This document shows positions 3,786 to 57,096 of a stretch of 64,000 nucleotides of DNA, one piece after another. Within the stretch, counting starts at the first letter, position 1. Each line of letters starts with the position of its first letter. The DNA lies in NCBI GenBank assembly GCA_965227515.1, contig CBDDFZ010000001.1, forward strand, positions 1,600,001 to 1,664,000. Direction: 5' to 3'. The stretch is from Alphaproteobacteria bacterium. Lineage in GTDB: Bacteria; Pseudomonadota; Alphaproteobacteria; CALKHQ01. The position numbers were made by a program, and so were the translations under genes. The notes beneath the pieces are model-generated. The model was given only the letters and a program-made list of their open reading frames with translations, did not search any database and was not told the origin of the DNA.

Positions 3786-3817
3786 GTAGCCCGGGTGGAG
3801 CGTAGCGCAACCCGGGG
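3786..3817 (+). repeat. GTAG-family REP upstream of RAYT
   Basis: GTAG-CCCGGGTGGAGCGTAGCGCAACCCGGG hairpin. Confidence 0.9.
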
Positions 3818-3853: not shown

Positions 3854-4381
3854 ATGGTTCGGTATCGCAGAAACCTCGTTCCCGGTGGCTCCTACTTTTT
3901 CACCGTGACCTTGCGGGACCGTCGGTCGAGCATTCTTGTCGACCAGATTGGCGCATTGCGAGATGCGTTCAGGGTTACGCGCGTCGCGCAACCATTCTCG
4001 GTCGACGCCATCGTTGTGTTGCCGGATCACATTCACACGGTGTGGACGCTTCCTGGAGGTGATGCCGATTACGCTGGGCGTTGGCGCCGTATCAAGGGCC
4101 GGTTCACATCACGGATAAAATCTCAGGAGGGGCAACTCGTGCCAAATGAACGGGGTGAGCATGCCCTCTGGCAGAGTCGGTTCTGGGAACACACAATTCG
4201 TGACGAGGACGACATGGAGAAGCACGTCGCCTACATCCACCACAATCCGGTGAAACACGGGCTGGTTCGACGCCCGTGCGACTGGCCGTATTCATCCTTT
4301 CATCACTACGTTCGCATGGGACATTTGCCGGCAGATTGGGCAACGGCGCCAGAGGGCCTGTCCGAGAGATTTGGCGAATAG
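3854..4381 (+). CDS. REP-associated tyrosine transposase (RAYT, Y1 HUH family)
   Basis: YRR...GGSYFFTV, VVLPDHIHTVW (HUH), LWQSRFWEHTIRDE, YIHHNPVKHGL, WPYSSF; flanked by inverted REPs. Confidence 0.95.
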   Translation: MVRYRRNLVPGGSYFFTVTLRDRRSSILVDQIGALRDAFRVTRVAQPFSVDAIVVLPDHIHTVWTLPGGDADYAGRWRRIKGRFTSRIKSQEGQLVPNERGEHALWQSRFWEHTIRDEDDMEKHVAYIHHNPVKHGLVRRPCDWPYSSFHHYVRMGHLPADWATAPEGLSERFGE

Positions 4382-4397
4382 CGGCTGGACGGGAATG

Positions 4398-4429
4398 CCC
4401 CGGGTTTCGTTTCACTTCACCCGGGCTAC
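4398..4429 (-). repeat. GTAG-family REP downstream of RAYT (inverted)
   Basis: CCCCGGGTTTCGTTTCACTTCACCCGGGCTAC. Confidence 0.9.
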
Positions 4430-9718: not shown

Positions 9719-10287
9719 CCGCGCCCCGTAACGAGGGCGGGGTAGCCCAACACCCGGTCGTCATGCCCGCACTTGTTGCGGGCATCCACGTCTTGGCAAC
9801 GGTCGATGAAAGTCGTGGATGGTCGGGACAAGCCCGACCATGACGTGTTTGGGGGTGTGGCCGTCCCTACGTCTTCCGCTCGGTGTAAGACCCCTGCTTA
9901 TGAAAGAATCGTAGCCCGGGTGGAACGAAGTGGAACCCGGGGACATCGAACTGCCGGCGGCCGAACCCGGGTTTCGCTACGCTCCACCCGGGCTACGCAT
10001 TGCGCTGGGCCCCGCGCCCGGTAACGAGGGCGGGGTAGTCGAACACACGGTCGTCATGCCCGCACTTGTTGCGCGCATCCACGTCTTGGCAACGGTCGAT
10101 GAAAGTCGTGGATGGTCGGGACAAGCCCGACCATGACGTGTTTGGGGGTGTGGCCGTCCCTACGTCTTCCGCTCGGTGTAAGACCCCTGCTTATGAAAGA
10201 ATCGTAGCCCGGGTGGAACGAAGTGGAACCCGGGGACATCGAACTGCGGGCGGCCGAACCCGGGTTTCGCTACGCTCCACCCAGGCT
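9719..10287. repeat. 293-bp tandem duplication made of gene-tail copies, a CGTC hairpin and a GTAG REP doublet
   Basis: Near-identical units offset by 293 bp: hairpins 9759-9845 and 10052-10138; REP doublets 9911-9996 and 10204-10287. Confidence 0.92.
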
Positions 10288-10560
10288 TCTGTAACGGGCC
10301 ATTGTTGGTCAATCCCTTTTTCGTCGTCCCGGCGCCTGGGTCATGCTTCTGTACGGGGTCGGCGCACGGCCGCCACCAAGATGGATATGCGAGGATCGGT
10401 CGGTCCAATCTACGGAAGCGTGCTCTCGTGCGAGGCGACATCCTGGATGGCGGCCTGACCTGATCCATCGTCCCGGCGCGGGACGGCGCTTGACGGGCCG
10501 GTGTCTGCGCCCGCCGAAGCTCGTGTGCTGGTTCTCCCTATGCGGCGGTCGTCTTTGCCA
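10288..10560 (-). ncRNA. Putative bridge/seek RNA region of IS110 copy 1
   Basis: Contains segments matching the circle junction (10346-10353, 10378-10384) and the REP target (10410-10415, 10440-10450); exact transcript ends unknown. Confidence 0.65.
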
Positions 10561-11598
10561 TTAGGCCGCTGCCATCGCCGGGCGCACCGGTCCGGCATGG
10601 TTGAACGCGGTGCCGTCAACCCACATCCGGTGCATGATCACGGCCAGCCGGCGCGCCAGCGCGACCTTCGCCTTCCTCATGCCGGCTCGCCTGGCCAGCT
10701 TCATCGCCCAGCTCTTCAACCACCCGCCCTTGATCGGCCGGGTCAGGATTACGTGCGCCGCCTCGTAAAGCGCTGCACGCACGTCCGCATCGCCCACCTT
10801 CGAGATCCGCCCCGTCATCTCGCTCTCGCCCGACTGGCGCTTGGTCGGCGTCAGGCCGAAGTGCGCCCCCACCAGGCGCGACGAGGCAAACCGCCCGGGG
10901 TCGTCCACTCCCGACAAGTAGGTCAGTCCGACAATGCTCCCCACGCCCGGCACCGTCATCAGCAGGCGAGCGCGATCGTCCGCCTGCGATGCCGCTCGGA
11001 CCTGCCGGTCCAGCGCCGTGAACGATAGCAACAGGCCATCGCGTGCCGACAGCAGCGCCCCCGCCTCCAGTACCGGATGCCCCGCCACAAGCTCCGAAAT
11101 ACGTGTCGAAAAGCTGCGCCTGGTGGTGTGCCCTACCTTCAGCCCGAAGTTCCGCAGCTGACCACGAAGGTGCATCTCAAGATCGTGCAGCTTCGCGCGG
11201 AGCTGGTCGCGACCCTTCAAAAGGGCCCGCATCTCCTGGGCCGCCAAAGACTTGCAGTGAACCGGACGAAACCAGCCCACACGCATCAGCTGAGCAATCC
11301 CGCGTGCGTCCGAGCGGTCCGACTTCACCGGCATCGTCGAAAGGGCCCGCGCAACATGACGCGTCTCCAGCAACTCAACCGAAAGACCGCCCTCGCTACA
11401 TCCCCGCACAAGCCATTGCGACAACGGCCCCGCCTCAAGACCAATCCGCTCAACCGAAATCCCCAAAGACCCAAACCACAACAACAAACCCGCCGGCGTG
11501 CTCGCAATACGAGCCTCGCAGACAATCCCGCCCGCGCCGTCAACAACGCACACCGATGACCATTCCAAAGAAACGTCAATCCCGGCATAGTAGTTCAT
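10561..11598 (-). CDS. IS110-family DEDD recombinase/transposase
   Basis: AGIDVS, IGLEAG, KSDRSDA (DEDD), PGVG, RQSGE serine motif, VALARRLAVI; 2-aa deletion relative to copy 2. Confidence 0.96.
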   Translation of the reverse strand: MNYYAGIDVSLEWSSVCVVDGAGGIVCEARIASTPAGLLLWFGSLGISVERIGLEAGPLSQWLVRGCSEGGLSVELLETRHVARALSTMPVKSDRSDARGIAQLMRVGWFRPVHCKSLAAQEMRALLKGRDQLRAKLHDLEMHLRGQLRNFGLKVGHTTRRSFSTRISELVAGHPVLEAGALLSARDGLLLSFTALDRQVRAASQADDRARLLMTVPGVGSIVGLTYLSGVDDPGRFASSRLVGAHFGLTPTKRQSGESEMTGRISKVGDADVRAALYEAAHVILTRPIKGGWLKSWAMKLARRAGMRKAKVALARRLAVIMHRMWVDGTAFNHAGPVRPAMAAA

Positions 11599-11768
11599 GG
11601 TCGTCTCTCCTCGATGTCTTGGAGCGGCAAACCCGACTCCGTGTATGACACCGACATCTTGAGGGACGACCACTCATGCACGCCACCAAACAAGGGCCGT
11701 TAGCCCATCTACGCATCGCGCTGGATCGCCGCGCCCGGTGACGAGGGCGGGGTAGCCAAACACCCGGT

Positions 11769-54238: not shown

Positions 54239-55075
54239 ATGCCTTCCTTTGAACGCTCAACGCTGGTCGCCAAATTCCAGCAGATGGTCCGCGACGGCCA
54301 GCCGATCATCGGCGGCGGCGCCGGCACCGGACTCTCCGCCAAGTGCGAGGAGGCCGGCGGCATCGACCTCATCGTCATCTACAATTCCGGGCGTTACCGC
54401 ATGGCCGGGCGCGGCTCGCTGGCCGGCATGATGGCCTATGGCAACGCCAACGACATCGTGGTCGAGATGGCGCGCGAGGTGCTGCCGGTCGTCAACTCGA
54501 CACCGGTGCTGGCCGGCGTCAACGGCACCGACCCGTTCTGCCTGTTCGACGATTTCCTGCCGCGGCTGAAGGCGATGGGCTTCGCCGGCGTGCAGAACTT
54601 CCCCACCGTCGGGCTGATCGACGGCCAGTTCCGCGCCAATCTGGAAGAGACCGGCATGGGCTACGGGCCGGAAGTGGAGATGATCGCGAAGGCGCACGGG
54701 CTGGACATGCTGACCACGCCCTACGTGTTCAACACGGACGAGGCGCGGCTGATGACCGAGGCCGGGGCCGACATCATCGTCGCCCACATGGGGCTGACGA
54801 CGGGCGGGGCCATCGGCGCGGAGACCGCGCTGACGCTGGACGACTGCGTGCCGGTGATCAACGACATCATCGCCGCGGCGCGCGAGGTGCGCGACGACGT
54901 GATCGTGCTCTGCCACGGCGGGCCGATCGCGATGCCGGACGATGCCGCCCATATCCTCAGCCACTGTCCCGGCTGCCACGGCTTCTACGGCGCCAGCAGC
55001 ATGGAGCGGCTGCCGACAGAGACCGCGCTGATCGAGCAGACGAAGCGGTTCAAGGCACTCACCCGCGGCGAGTGA
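54239..55075 (+). CDS. Phosphoenolpyruvate hydrolase-like TIM-barrel protein
   Basis: [37 protein letters not shown]. Confidence 0.9.
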
Positions 55076-55087
55076 GATCGGTGCCCT

Positions 55088-55175
55088 GTAGCCCGGATGG
55101 AGTGGAGCGCAATCCGGGTTTCGTTGTGACAACAACATCGATTGCCCCGGATTACGCTGGCGCTTCATCCGGGCT
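55088..55175. repeat. GTAG REP doublet interrupted at its end by IS110 copy 2
   Basis: GTAGCCCGGATGG...CATCCGGGCT, with the final AC displaced to 56596. Confidence 0.9.
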
Positions 55176-55439
55176 TCTGTAACGGGCCATTGTTGGTCAA
55201 TCCCTTTTTCGTCGTCCCGGCGCCTGGGTCATGCTTCTGTACGGGGTCGGCGCAGGGCCGCCGCCAAGATGGATATGCGAGGATCGGTCGGTCCAATCTA
55301 CGGAAGCGTGCTCTCATGCGAGGCGACATCCCGGATGGCGGCCTGACCTGATCCATCGTCCCGGCGCGGGACGGCGCTCGACGGGCCGGTGTCGGTGCCC
55401 GTCGAAGCTCGTGTGTCGGTTCTCCTTATGCCGCGGCCA
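55176..55439 (-). ncRNA. Putative bridge/seek RNA region of IS110 copy 2
   Basis: Conserved with copy 1; target-like segments at 55298-55303 and 55328-55338. Confidence 0.65.
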
Positions 55440-56483
55440 TCATGCTGTCGCCATCGCCGGGCGCACCGGTCCGGCATGGTTGAACGGTGTGCCGTCAACC
55501 CACATCCGGTGCATGATCACGGCGAGCCGGCGCGCCAGCGCGACCTTCGCCTTCCTCATGCCGGCTCGCCTGGCCAGCTTCATCGCCCAGCTCTTCAGCC
55601 AGCCGCCCTCGATCGGCCGGGTCAGAACCACGTGCGCCGCCTCATAGAGGGCCGAGCGCACATCGGCGTCCCCCACCTTCGAGATCCGCCCCGTCATCTC
55701 GCTCTCGCCCGACTGGCGCTTGGTCGGCGTCAGGCCGAAGTGCGCACCCACCAGGCGCGACGAGGCAAACCGCCCGGGGTCGTCCACTCCCGACAAGTAG
55801 GTCAGTCCGACAATGCTCCCCACGCCCGGCACCGTCATCAGCAGGCGAGCGCGATCGTCCGCCTGCGATGCCGCTCGGACCTGCCGGTCCAGCGCCGTGA
55901 ACGATAGCAACAGGCCATCGCGTGCCGACAGCAGCGCCCCCGCCACCGCCTCCAGTACCGGATGCCCCGCCACAAGCTCCGAAATACGTGTCGAAAAGCT
56001 GCGCCTGGTGGTGTGCCCTACCTTCAGCCCGAAGTTCCGCAGCTGACCACGAAGGTGCATCTCAAGATCGTGCAGCTTCGCGCGGAGCTGGTCGCGACCC
56101 TTCAAAAGGGCCCGCATCTCCTGGGCCGCCAAAGACTTGCAGTGAACCGGACGAAACCAGCCCACACGCATCAGCTGAGCAATCCCGCGTGCGTCCGAGC
56201 GGTCCGACTTCACCGGCATCGTCGAAAGCGCTCGCGCAACATGACGCGTCTCCAGCAACTCAACCGAAAGACCGCCCTCGCTACATCCCCGCACAAGCCA
56301 TTGCGACAACGGCCCCGCCTCAAGACCAATCCGCTCAACCGAAATCCCCAAAGACCCAAACCACAACAACAAACCCGCCGGCGTGCTCGCAATACGAGCC
56401 TCGCAGACAATCCCGCCCGCGCCGTCAACAACGCATACCGATGACCATTCCAAAGAAACGTCAATCCCGGCATAGTAGTTCAT
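55440..56483 (-). CDS. IS110-family DEDD recombinase/transposase
   Basis: Same DEDD and QSG motifs as copy 1; intact 347 aa. Confidence 0.96.
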   Translation of the reverse strand: MNYYAGIDVSLEWSSVCVVDGAGGIVCEARIASTPAGLLLWFGSLGISVERIGLEAGPLSQWLVRGCSEGGLSVELLETRHVARALSTMPVKSDRSDARGIAQLMRVGWFRPVHCKSLAAQEMRALLKGRDQLRAKLHDLEMHLRGQLRNFGLKVGHTTRRSFSTRISELVAGHPVLEAVAGALLSARDGLLLSFTALDRQVRAASQADDRARLLMTVPGVGSIVGLTYLSGVDDPGRFASSRLVGAHFGLTPTKRQSGESEMTGRISKVGDADVRSALYEAAHVVLTRPIEGGWLKSWAMKLARRAGMRKAKVALARRLAVIMHRMWVDGTPFNHAGPVRPAMATA

Positions 56484-56649
56484 GGTCGTCTCTCCTCGAT
56501 GTCTTGGAGCGGCAAACCCGACTCCGTGTATGACACCGACATCTTGAGGGACGACCACTCATGCACGCCACCAAACAAGGGCCGTTAGCCCATCTACGGG
56601 TCCGTGGCATCGCGCCCGCCGACGCACGAGTACGAGGGAAGCAACAGCA

Positions 56650-57096
56650 ATGACCAAGGTCTACATCAGCAACGTGATCGATCTGCCGGTCGACAAGGTT
56701 TGGGCGCTGGCCCGTGATTTCAACGGCCACGACAGGTGGCACCCGATCATTGCCGAGAGCCACGTCGAGGGCGGAAAGCCGAGCGACCAGGTCGGTTGCG
56801 TGCGCAACTTCAAGCTCGCCGACGGCACGCCCTTGCGCGAGCAGCTGCTGTCGTTCAGCGACCGCGAGCACAGCTTCACTTACAACATCCTGGAATCGCC
56901 GCTGCCGCTGGAGAACTACGTCGCGACGTTCCGTTGCACGGCCGTGACCGAGGGCGACCGCACATTCGTTGAGTGGATGGCGGAGTTCGACACCGCGGCC
57001 GAGAACGAGGCGACCCTGGTCGAGCAGGTCGGCCGCAACACCTTCGCCGCCGGTATCGTCGCACTCGCCGAGGCCCTGGGCGCGAAGGTGGGGTAA
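56650..57096 (+). CDS. SRPBCC/polyketide cyclase-like protein
   Basis: VWALARDFNG...WHP, VGCVRNF.L.DG..LREQL. Confidence 0.88.
   Translation: MTKVYISNVIDLPVDKVWALARDFNGHDRWHPIIAESHVEGGKPSDQVGCVRNFKLADGTPLREQLLSFSDREHSFTYNILESPLPLENYVATFRCTAVTEGDRTFVEWMAEFDTAAENEATLVEQVGRNTFAAGIVALAEALGAKVG

Follow-up and report, generated by a model that had tools for sequence, protein, structure and literature searches.

An IS110-family insertion sequence of the IS1111 type at the GTAG head of RAYT-type REPs in an alphaproteobacterial genome, and its predicted guide RNA

The targeting of repetitive extragenic palindromic (REP) sequences by insertion sequences (ISs) of the IS110 family is said to go back to work on IS621 by Choi et al. 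in 2003. The natural target reported for IS621 is ATCAGGC-CT-AC, the CTAC end of Escherichia coli REPs (PMC11208160). The survey of Tobes and Pareja reports REPs as the location of 7/7 copies each of ISPpu9 and ISPpu10, of 4/4 copies of the IS110-family element ISRm19 of Sinorhizobium meliloti 1021 (Table 2 of that survey), and of 6/6 copies of ISPa11 of Pseudomonas aeruginosa PAO1, the last at one fixed REP position and with no conventional duplication (PMC1525189). ISPa11 is treated as an IS1111-family element, and its seekRNA has been characterised (PMC11187229); a long non-coding region downstream of the transposase gene, together with sub-terminal inverted repeats, defines the IS1111 group (PMC11187229, PMC11208160). 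Here we describe an unnamed IS present as two copies in a 64,000-nt stretch of an alphaproteobacterial genome (GenBank assembly GCA_965227515.1, contig CBDDFZ010000001.1, positions 1,600,001 to 1,664,000 of the forward strand), which we call the window and to whose first letter positions below refer unless a contig is named. On the evidence of copies that share position and orientation, of an RNA structure that covaries, and of guides that covary with both target and donor, it is very probably an active IS110-family element of the IS1111 type, with RNA-guided insertion at the AG that ends the GTAG head of REPs of the kind associated with REP-associated tyrosine transposases (RAYTs).

Copy A (10288-11710, 1423 bp) and copy B (55176-56595, 1420 bp including one core dinucleotide) both carry their transposase gene on the minus strand and are 95% identical over the aligned 1.6 kb. 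The plus-strand junctions of both copies read ...CC[A/G]GG-CT|IS...CAT-CT|ACG, with CT at either junction and no other target duplication, and when the element and one CT are taken out the sequence reads ...GG-CT-AC(G), where CTAC (GTAG in reverse) closes a REP. In the sense of the transposase, the insertion point is NNCGT-AG|IS|AG-CCYGGRTGG, within the GTAG head of the REP. For copy B, the left core CT (55174-55175, plus strand; AG in the transposase sense) adjoins the stem of the interrupted REP; the body of this REP, which is of the CCCGGATG type (55145-55173, minus strand), abuts the IS end that bears the predicted non-coding RNA (ncRNA). The right core CT is followed by AC (56594-56597, plus strand) and together with the left flank gives CTAC (GTAG on the minus strand), as read from the junction and from an empty paralogue. 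The intact partner REP of the copy-B doublet, with its own GTAG head, lies at 55088-55118 (plus strand). Copy A interrupts a REP of the CCTGGGTG type. Next to it, a tandem duplication of ~293 bp (window 9900-10290) holds one REP doublet occupied by the IS and an empty sister; the unoccupied doublet (9911-9998, plus strand) reads ...CCACCCGGG-CT-ACGCATTGCG..., with a lone CT at 9993-9994, and thus provides a natural empty site and control for copy A. An earlier, sequence-only reading of the window had placed both IS110 copies at the same CT of the GTAG tag and held that their removal restores ...GG-CT-ACG; coordinates, junctions and orientation all agree with it, as does the single CT of the empty paralogue.

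Searched over its entire 5.52 Mb (two contigs), the assembly yielded 20 full copies and one with an internal deletion. All 21 occupy the identical dinucleotide in the identical orientation relative to the REP, and none (0/21) lies outside a REP or at a variable position within one; chance is excluded as an explanation of this shared position. The core AG/CT is present at both junctions in 20/20 full copies, so that the picture first drawn from the two window copies (CT on both sides, no further duplication, one orientation) holds genome-wide, and the transposase open reading frame (ORF) is intact in the same 20 copies (345-347 amino acids). A further 114 GTAGCCYGGRTG sites in the genome are unoccupied, and the REPs that had been listed as empty at 9911, 16019 and 49419 are all among them. 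An inverted partner REP tag lies within 170 nt at 19/21 occupied sites and 81/114 empty sites. By sequence identity, 13 copies form sublineage 1 (98.4-100% identical), to which copy B belongs (99-100% identity to 12 other copies), and six form sublineage 2 (96.9-99.9%), which includes copy A. One copy of a third sublineage (C1:694776-696204), its ORF intact, is 89-92% identical to both, and the internally deleted copy (C1:998355-999179) is without roughly positions 121-701. In the assembled contigs of sequencing run X1, depth is ~259 on the IS and ~21 on unique flanks.

The only long ORF of the element to match a transposase family is at 55440-56483 (minus strand; 10561-11598 in copy A). Its 347-residue product carries the domains DEDD_Tnp_IS110 (PF01548, 48.6 bits, cut-off 29) and Transposase_20 (PF02371, 72.8 bits, cut-off 21.3), and matches the NCBIfam model NF033542, "IS110 family RNA-guided transposase", at 234.8 bits (cut-off 140), in line with the family assignment made earlier. 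The PDB matches are the transposases of ISCro4 and IS621, with the GIDVS, LEA, K.D..DAR and SG motifs aligned; in the alignment to the ISCro4 transposase (PDB 9t56) the N-terminal stretch scores weakly by itself, and D8, E55, D94, D97 and S258 (positions counted by hand) are the candidate catalytic residues. The left end comprises 110 nt upstream of the gene (56484-56593) and the right end 264 nt downstream (55176-55439). An 18-nt sub-terminal inverted repeat, 78% complementary, has its right-end arm at 55180-55197 (plus strand) and its partner at 56570-56587; the arms are set in by 4 nt at the right end and by 6 nt (plus the core) at the left. In relatives, by our count, a perfect 10-bp repeat is flanked by extensions of 7 bp (ATGGG plus AG) on the left and 3 bp (AGA) on the right, the AG being counted with the left. 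Judged by sequence features, namely the sub-terminal repeats and the length of the non-coding region that follows the gene, the element is a member of the IS110 family and of the IS1111 type, as had been proposed.

The left end also contains a predicted hairpin in the 5' untranslated region (5'-UTR) of the transposase mRNA (56483-56557, minus strand), in which the ribosome-binding site and ATG region pair with an upstream segment (arms 56483-56494 and 56546-56557). The arms are 12 nt long and 92% complementary here, and 100% complementary in the relative L025 (L025:1123-1201). This hairpin probably restrains translation of the transposase; that of ISPpu9 is reported to be regulated by the 5'-UTR structure of its own mRNA (PMC8450116).

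For the 3' non-coding region we turned to relatives of the element, fetching 75 loci that encode a related transposase (37-69% identity). By label or name these belong mostly to alphaproteobacterial genomes or metagenome-assembled genomes, with a few from Burkholderiales, Acidobacteriaceae and Parafilimonas; some of the genera named we take to be alphaproteobacterial. Regular expressions for the end motifs located both ends in 26/75 loci, and after L023 was dropped for a false right-end match, the remaining 25 loci and the two window copies gave a comparative set of 27 elements from ~10 lineages, some of them with several copies per genome. The 3' regions of all 27 align well. Applied to 15 of them (one to three per lineage), RNAalifold returned a structure of 28 pairs in which 92.1% of cells are paired; shifting the 3' partners by 1-3 columns lowers this to 33-49%. 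Both sides changed in 16/28 pairs, a figure reached by 1/500 shuffles, and the covariation score is 0.431 versus 0.195, with 0/500 shuffles reaching it. The alignment thus indicates that the 3' region encodes a conserved structured RNA; a scan of 55000-56700 against Rfam (E up to 1) matched no family.

In copy B the predicted bridge RNA or seekRNA spans 55220-55367 (minus strand), where an outer stem (55360-55367 with 55220-55227) encloses two RNA domains. The first of these has a loop, closed by a 12-pair stem, with one candidate target guide on its 5' side and another on its 3' side. Target guide 1, CCAUCCGGG (55330-55338, minus strand), is complementary to the REP stem CCCGGATGG adjoining the core; the corresponding guide of copy A is CCAUCCAGG (10442-10450). 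Target guide 2, UUCCGU plus AG (55298-55305, minus strand), is in the same sense as the left flank together with the core. In every sequence it is followed by AU (55296-55305 with these two bases included), and the left end of the IS opens with the same two bases. On the RNA, therefore, the complement of the right flank precedes the match to the left flank and core. Further along are two candidate donor guides on the minus strand: CCAUCU (55267-55272), complementary to the core and the start of the left end (AG-ATGG), and UACAGA plus AG (55234-55241), which is in the same sense as the right end and core (UACAGAAG with TACAGA-AG). Of the two bases that follow the latter, CA (55232-55241 with these included), one matches the REP; in L028, L047, L052, L064 and L077, by our reading of the alignment, both of the equivalent bases agree with the two at the start of the target. 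Both dinucleotides resemble the handshake guides conceived for IS621 (PMC11208158).

Across the comparative set, guides and the DNA that they would read change together. In 18/27 elements guide 1 is perfectly complementary to the right flank of its own element over 7 or more consecutive nt, compared with 7/606 cross-lineage pairings, and the run mostly starts at the base adjoining the core; the score is a register-free longest run, as fixed alignment columns mis-register some families by 1-2 nt. Guide 2 is identical to the left flank and core of the same element over 5 or more consecutive nt in 16/27 cases, as against 34/604 cross-pairings. The donor guides change along with the element ends in three families (GGCAU with ATGCC, AGAGAAG with TTAGAGA-AG, and AGCGAAG with TTAGCGA-AG).

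Covariation of guide and target also extends to the copies within this one genome. Guide 1 is CCAUCCGGG in the 13 copies of sublineage 1 and CCAUCCAGG, with A in place of G at one base, in the remaining seven. Where the guide has G, the target base is C in 11 cases and T in two; where it has A, the target is C in none and T in seven (Fisher p = 4.6e-4). By REP type, sublineage 1 occupies CCCGGATG nine times, CCCGGGTG twice and CCTGGGTG twice; CCCGGATG makes up 27/135 sites, yet it received 9/13 of these insertions (binomial tail 1.7e-4). The copies with the A-guide occupy CCTGGGTG six times and CCTGGATG once; CCTGGATG is their only perfect match, and the copy at C1:694776-696204 sits in the sole REP type that matches the A-guide perfectly. 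The two paralogous doublets beside copy A differ at the very base that discriminates the two guide variants: the occupied site has CCCAGG (CCTGGGTGG), and the empty paralogue has CCCGGG (CCCGGGTGG) and would thus mismatch the A-guide.

A second genome (G001), that of a relative, shows a similar pattern. There, guide AAUCCGCC accompanies insertion in GGCGGATT (L025/L098) and, with one mismatch, in GGCAGATT (L099), guide AACCCGCC accompanies GGCGGGTT (L027/L100), and a 75%-identical IS with guide UCAUGCGGG lies in CCCGCATGA (L102). Both GTAG-headed target 12-mers are repeated in that genome, with 11 sites each versus 0 and 1 for control patterns; no RAYT was found in G001, a genome given without a figure for completeness. 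Taken across genomes, the related elements occupy the GTAG-headed stems CCCGGATG, CCTGGGTG, GGCGGRTT and CCCGCATG. The RNA-guided choice of target that the sequence-only reading had proposed is thus matched by covariation of guide and target both within the genome and across relatives.

We propose that the element inserts by site-specific recombination under the guidance of an RNA, at the terminal AG of the GTAG head of the REP (CT when the opposite strand is read). In the transposase sense the element would consist of a 110-nt left end, the gene for a 347-residue DEDD/Ser recombinase, and a 264-nt right end encoding a structured RNA of ~150 nt. One internal loop of this RNA would present both target guides, the 9-nt complement of the REP stem and then, 3' of it, the segment in the sense of the left flank and core (..CGU-AG), and a second region would present CCAUCU and UACAGA-AG as guides for the joined ends of the IS itself. 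From what is known of the family, the element would be excised as a circle joined as right end-AG-left end, a promoter would be formed at this junction (a TTGAC motif is conserved ~19 nt from the right end), the RNA would be transcribed with or after the transposase mRNA, and strand exchange would take place at the core.

Pairing may not be all that the recombinase uses. It is possible, although we are rather doubtful, that recognition is dual, with the recombinase also reading the REP stem-loop; this would add to RNA guidance and leave it in place. A target-encoded stem-loop is reported to gate insertion of ISPpu10 (bioRxiv 10.64898/2026.03.19.712850), in 21/21 cases here the sequence covered by the guide is one arm of a palindrome able to form a hairpin, and lineages in relatives often target palindromic repeats; however, the flanks of L039, L047 and L064 have no obvious palindrome, and the single-base covariation is explained by pairing alone. 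Recognition by protein only, in which the transposase reads the sequence or hairpin of the REP and the 3' region is regulatory or a terminator, was the view held of REP-targeting ISs before 2024 (PMC1525189), but we consider it very improbable for this element: the 9-nt loop segment shifts with the target in 8/10 grouped lineages whose transposases are 42-68% identical, one guide base tracks the REP variant within the genome, and the NCBIfam model that the transposase matches is itself named for an RNA-guided enzyme. Hardly credible at all is the idea that the REP-like flanks are part of the element, or were spread with it by segmental duplication or homologous recombination, since, although one occupied site does lie within the ~293 bp tandem duplication and a composite unit of REP, spacer and REP is common to several left flanks, the sequences on the non-REP side are mutually unrelated in 21/21 copies, the adjoining REPs vary in sequence and type, 114 identical sites lack the IS, and the duplicated paralogue is empty with one CT.

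Several observations weigh against RNA-guided insertion by an active element, or narrow what can be read from its support. The 27 elements were chosen with end motifs that we wrote ourselves, which favours conserved donors. Minimum-free-energy folds of the 3' region as single sequences are not distinctive (z = -1.4 and -2.0), so that the RNA structure rests on the comparative alignment, and the transcription, ends and strand of the RNA are modelled on published IS1111 seekRNAs, to which the region is presumed homologous. The exact run of guide 1 falls below 7 nt in 9/27 elements (L032, L036, L039, L047, L054, L055, L061, L077 and copy A, where a G:U wobble interrupts it), and wobble pairs (G:U or G:T) are needed in 4/13 sublineage-1 copies and 6/7 A-guide copies. 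Guide 1 here covers one of the two core bases, with AU where CU would pair. Guide 2 matches little beyond CGUAG, which is itself the REP consensus, so that within this genome its contribution is inseparable from REP conservation. Among the sequencing runs listed as containing the stretch there was no RNA run. Finally, neither a joint that skips the IS nor a circle junction was present in the assembled contigs of four runs, although contigs cannot show rare forms.

Among the described systems, IS621 shares the element's choice of site. Each enters a RAYT-type REP at the CT of its CTAC (GTAG) end, has a DEDD/Ser recombinase and is bordered on either side by the 2-bp core, and in both the ncRNA-bearing end abuts the REP stem; the CT core of IS621 at E. 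coli REPs had been cited correctly as the precedent (PMC11208160). If the target is read with a CT core, the arrangement of the RNA is shared as well, with a left target guide (LTG, to which guide 1 would correspond) 5', a right target guide (RTG, resembled by guide 2) 3', the core included, and 2-nt handshakes. In contrast, the RNA of IS621 is encoded 5' of the gene in the left end, whereas here it is 3' in the right end; the core here is AG in the transposase sense, the guide order is reversed, and the element lies the opposite way round to the RNA-target geometry. Such a reversed guide order is published for IS1111 seekRNAs (PMC11187229). Sub-terminal repeats are 2-3 bp in IS621 and about 10-18 bp here, and the IS621 protein aligns weakly with the present transposase (E 8e-11, mainly in the C-terminal domain). 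ISEc11 and ISKpn4 resemble the element in their downstream non-coding region, in sub-terminal repeats with 7-bp and 3-bp extensions, and in natural retargeting (PMC11187229), and for ISEc11 and ISXne4 the same source reports retargeting by guide change, with differing target sequences. The seekRNAs have been described in print in terms of target matches alone; here, segments that match the donor are evident too.

Other ISs are likewise reported to reside in REPs. ISPpu9 and ISPpu10 (P. putida KT2440, IS110 family) share the fixed REP position and the 2-bp repeat, but their point of entry lies between bases 9 and 10 in the REP of P. putida; for ISPa11 it is reported to lie between bases 6 and 7 of the P. 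aeruginosa REP, and ISRm19 is likewise an IS110-family element in REPs, these last two being compared by description only. Sinorhizobium, the host genus of ISRm19, is also alphaproteobacterial, and the best Sinorhizobium plasmid matches to the present transposase are 62-64% identical and carry no IS name. More generally, protein searches of plasmids returned only "IS110 family transposase" as a name.

The RAYT affiliation of the REPs, as previously suggested, rests on a RAYT gene at 3854-4381 (plus strand; NF047646, 189 bits, cut-off 80) that is flanked by inverted GTAG-headed CCCGGGTG...AACCCGGG REPs at 3786-3817 and 4398-4429. A second RAYT lies outside the window (C1:1381153-1381548, 169 bits) and is flanked by CCCGGATG...AATCCGGG REPs, the type that holds copy B and most of sublineage 1. 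The sequence-only reading had taken the gene at 3854 as the matching RAYT: it is indeed a RAYT, but the REP type of copy B is that of the second gene. With two RAYTs, each bounded on both sides by a REP type of its own, the genome runs two RAYT-REP systems; both REP types also pair up in mixed doublets, which are common. A third, weak match to a Y1 transposase (C1:2017028-2017432, 61 bits) falls below the cut-off; a segment of ~20 bp recurs upstream and downstream of it in direct orientation and once more downstream in inverted orientation, and it may be a Y1 transposase associated with terminal inverted repeats or an IS200-like element.

We lean, by a modest degree, towards a further reading of these data, in which the IS has split into sublineages that differ by one guide base, each lodged in the paired REP variant of the two RAYT-REP systems. 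The invariant GTAG may anchor the core and the short 3' guide in this AG-core clade, so that a change of the 9-nt guide alone would allow a hop from one REP family to another. If this is true, the copies record an RNA-guided transposon in the course of retargeting, and provide natural data on how far wobble is tolerated.

Insertion also changes what is left of the REP. Afterwards the hairpin is preceded by ...ACAGA-AG (GAAG) in place of GTAG, and GTAG persists at the left junction, detached from the hairpin. Cleavage by RAYTs depends on the tag, and an occupied REP, its hairpin parted from GTAG, is probably no longer a RAYT substrate. The earlier statement that the IS destroys the GTAG tag therefore holds for the head of the hairpin, which becomes GAAG, but not for the tag itself, which survives at the other junction; the block to RAYT activity would follow from the presumed need for the tag.

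In kind, the behaviour described here is not new, as IS621 uses the same CT of CTAC and the residence of ISPa11 and ISRm19 in REPs was reported in 2006; the established picture of how these systems work is unchanged by this case. The novelty implied by the sequence-only reading was accordingly overstated, REP targeting being already on record for ISPa11 and ISRm19 (PMC1525189), and what stands is an unnamed member of the family with a one-base guide split. Its value is twofold: within a single genome, guides that differ by one base go with different REP variants, and the bridge RNA, of the IS1111 type, is fully readable. The IS1111 subgroup is much less studied than IS621, and the element is a natural, many-copy example of an IS1111-type bridge RNA or seekRNA in which four guides and the handshake positions can be read, backed by covariation. 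Two sublineages that differ in one guide amount to a natural specificity experiment on which mismatches and wobbles are tolerated. The locus also illustrates layered selfish elements, RAYTs maintaining the REPs and an RNA-guided IS inhabiting them. Among the literature matches listed, no paper explicitly joins RAYT, IS110 and bridge RNA, and the accessible text of those on RAYT and IS110 does not discuss the GTAG tag; the supplements of the bridge-RNA and seekRNA papers (target logos, ISfinder entries) may include close relatives.

Two of the related loci show additional copies of right-end sequence. In L036 (2505-2760), the right end is directly followed by a solo second 3' ncRNA module with a right end of its own, which recalls the extra ssr9 copies named for ISPpu9 (PMC12288879). 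In L099 of G001 (~2940-2970), the right-end terminus is duplicated, with two successive ...CCCGTTAC..AAG ends.

Beyond this genome, comparison of window positions 54900-56900 with runs X2-X20 found near-identical IS sequence in runs of other organisms and in biofloc, algae, seawater and aquatic metagenomes, which suggests that the IS has spread recently among related aquatic bacteria. In runs X2 and X7, both from other organisms, the ncRNA end of the IS likewise continues into a REP arm.

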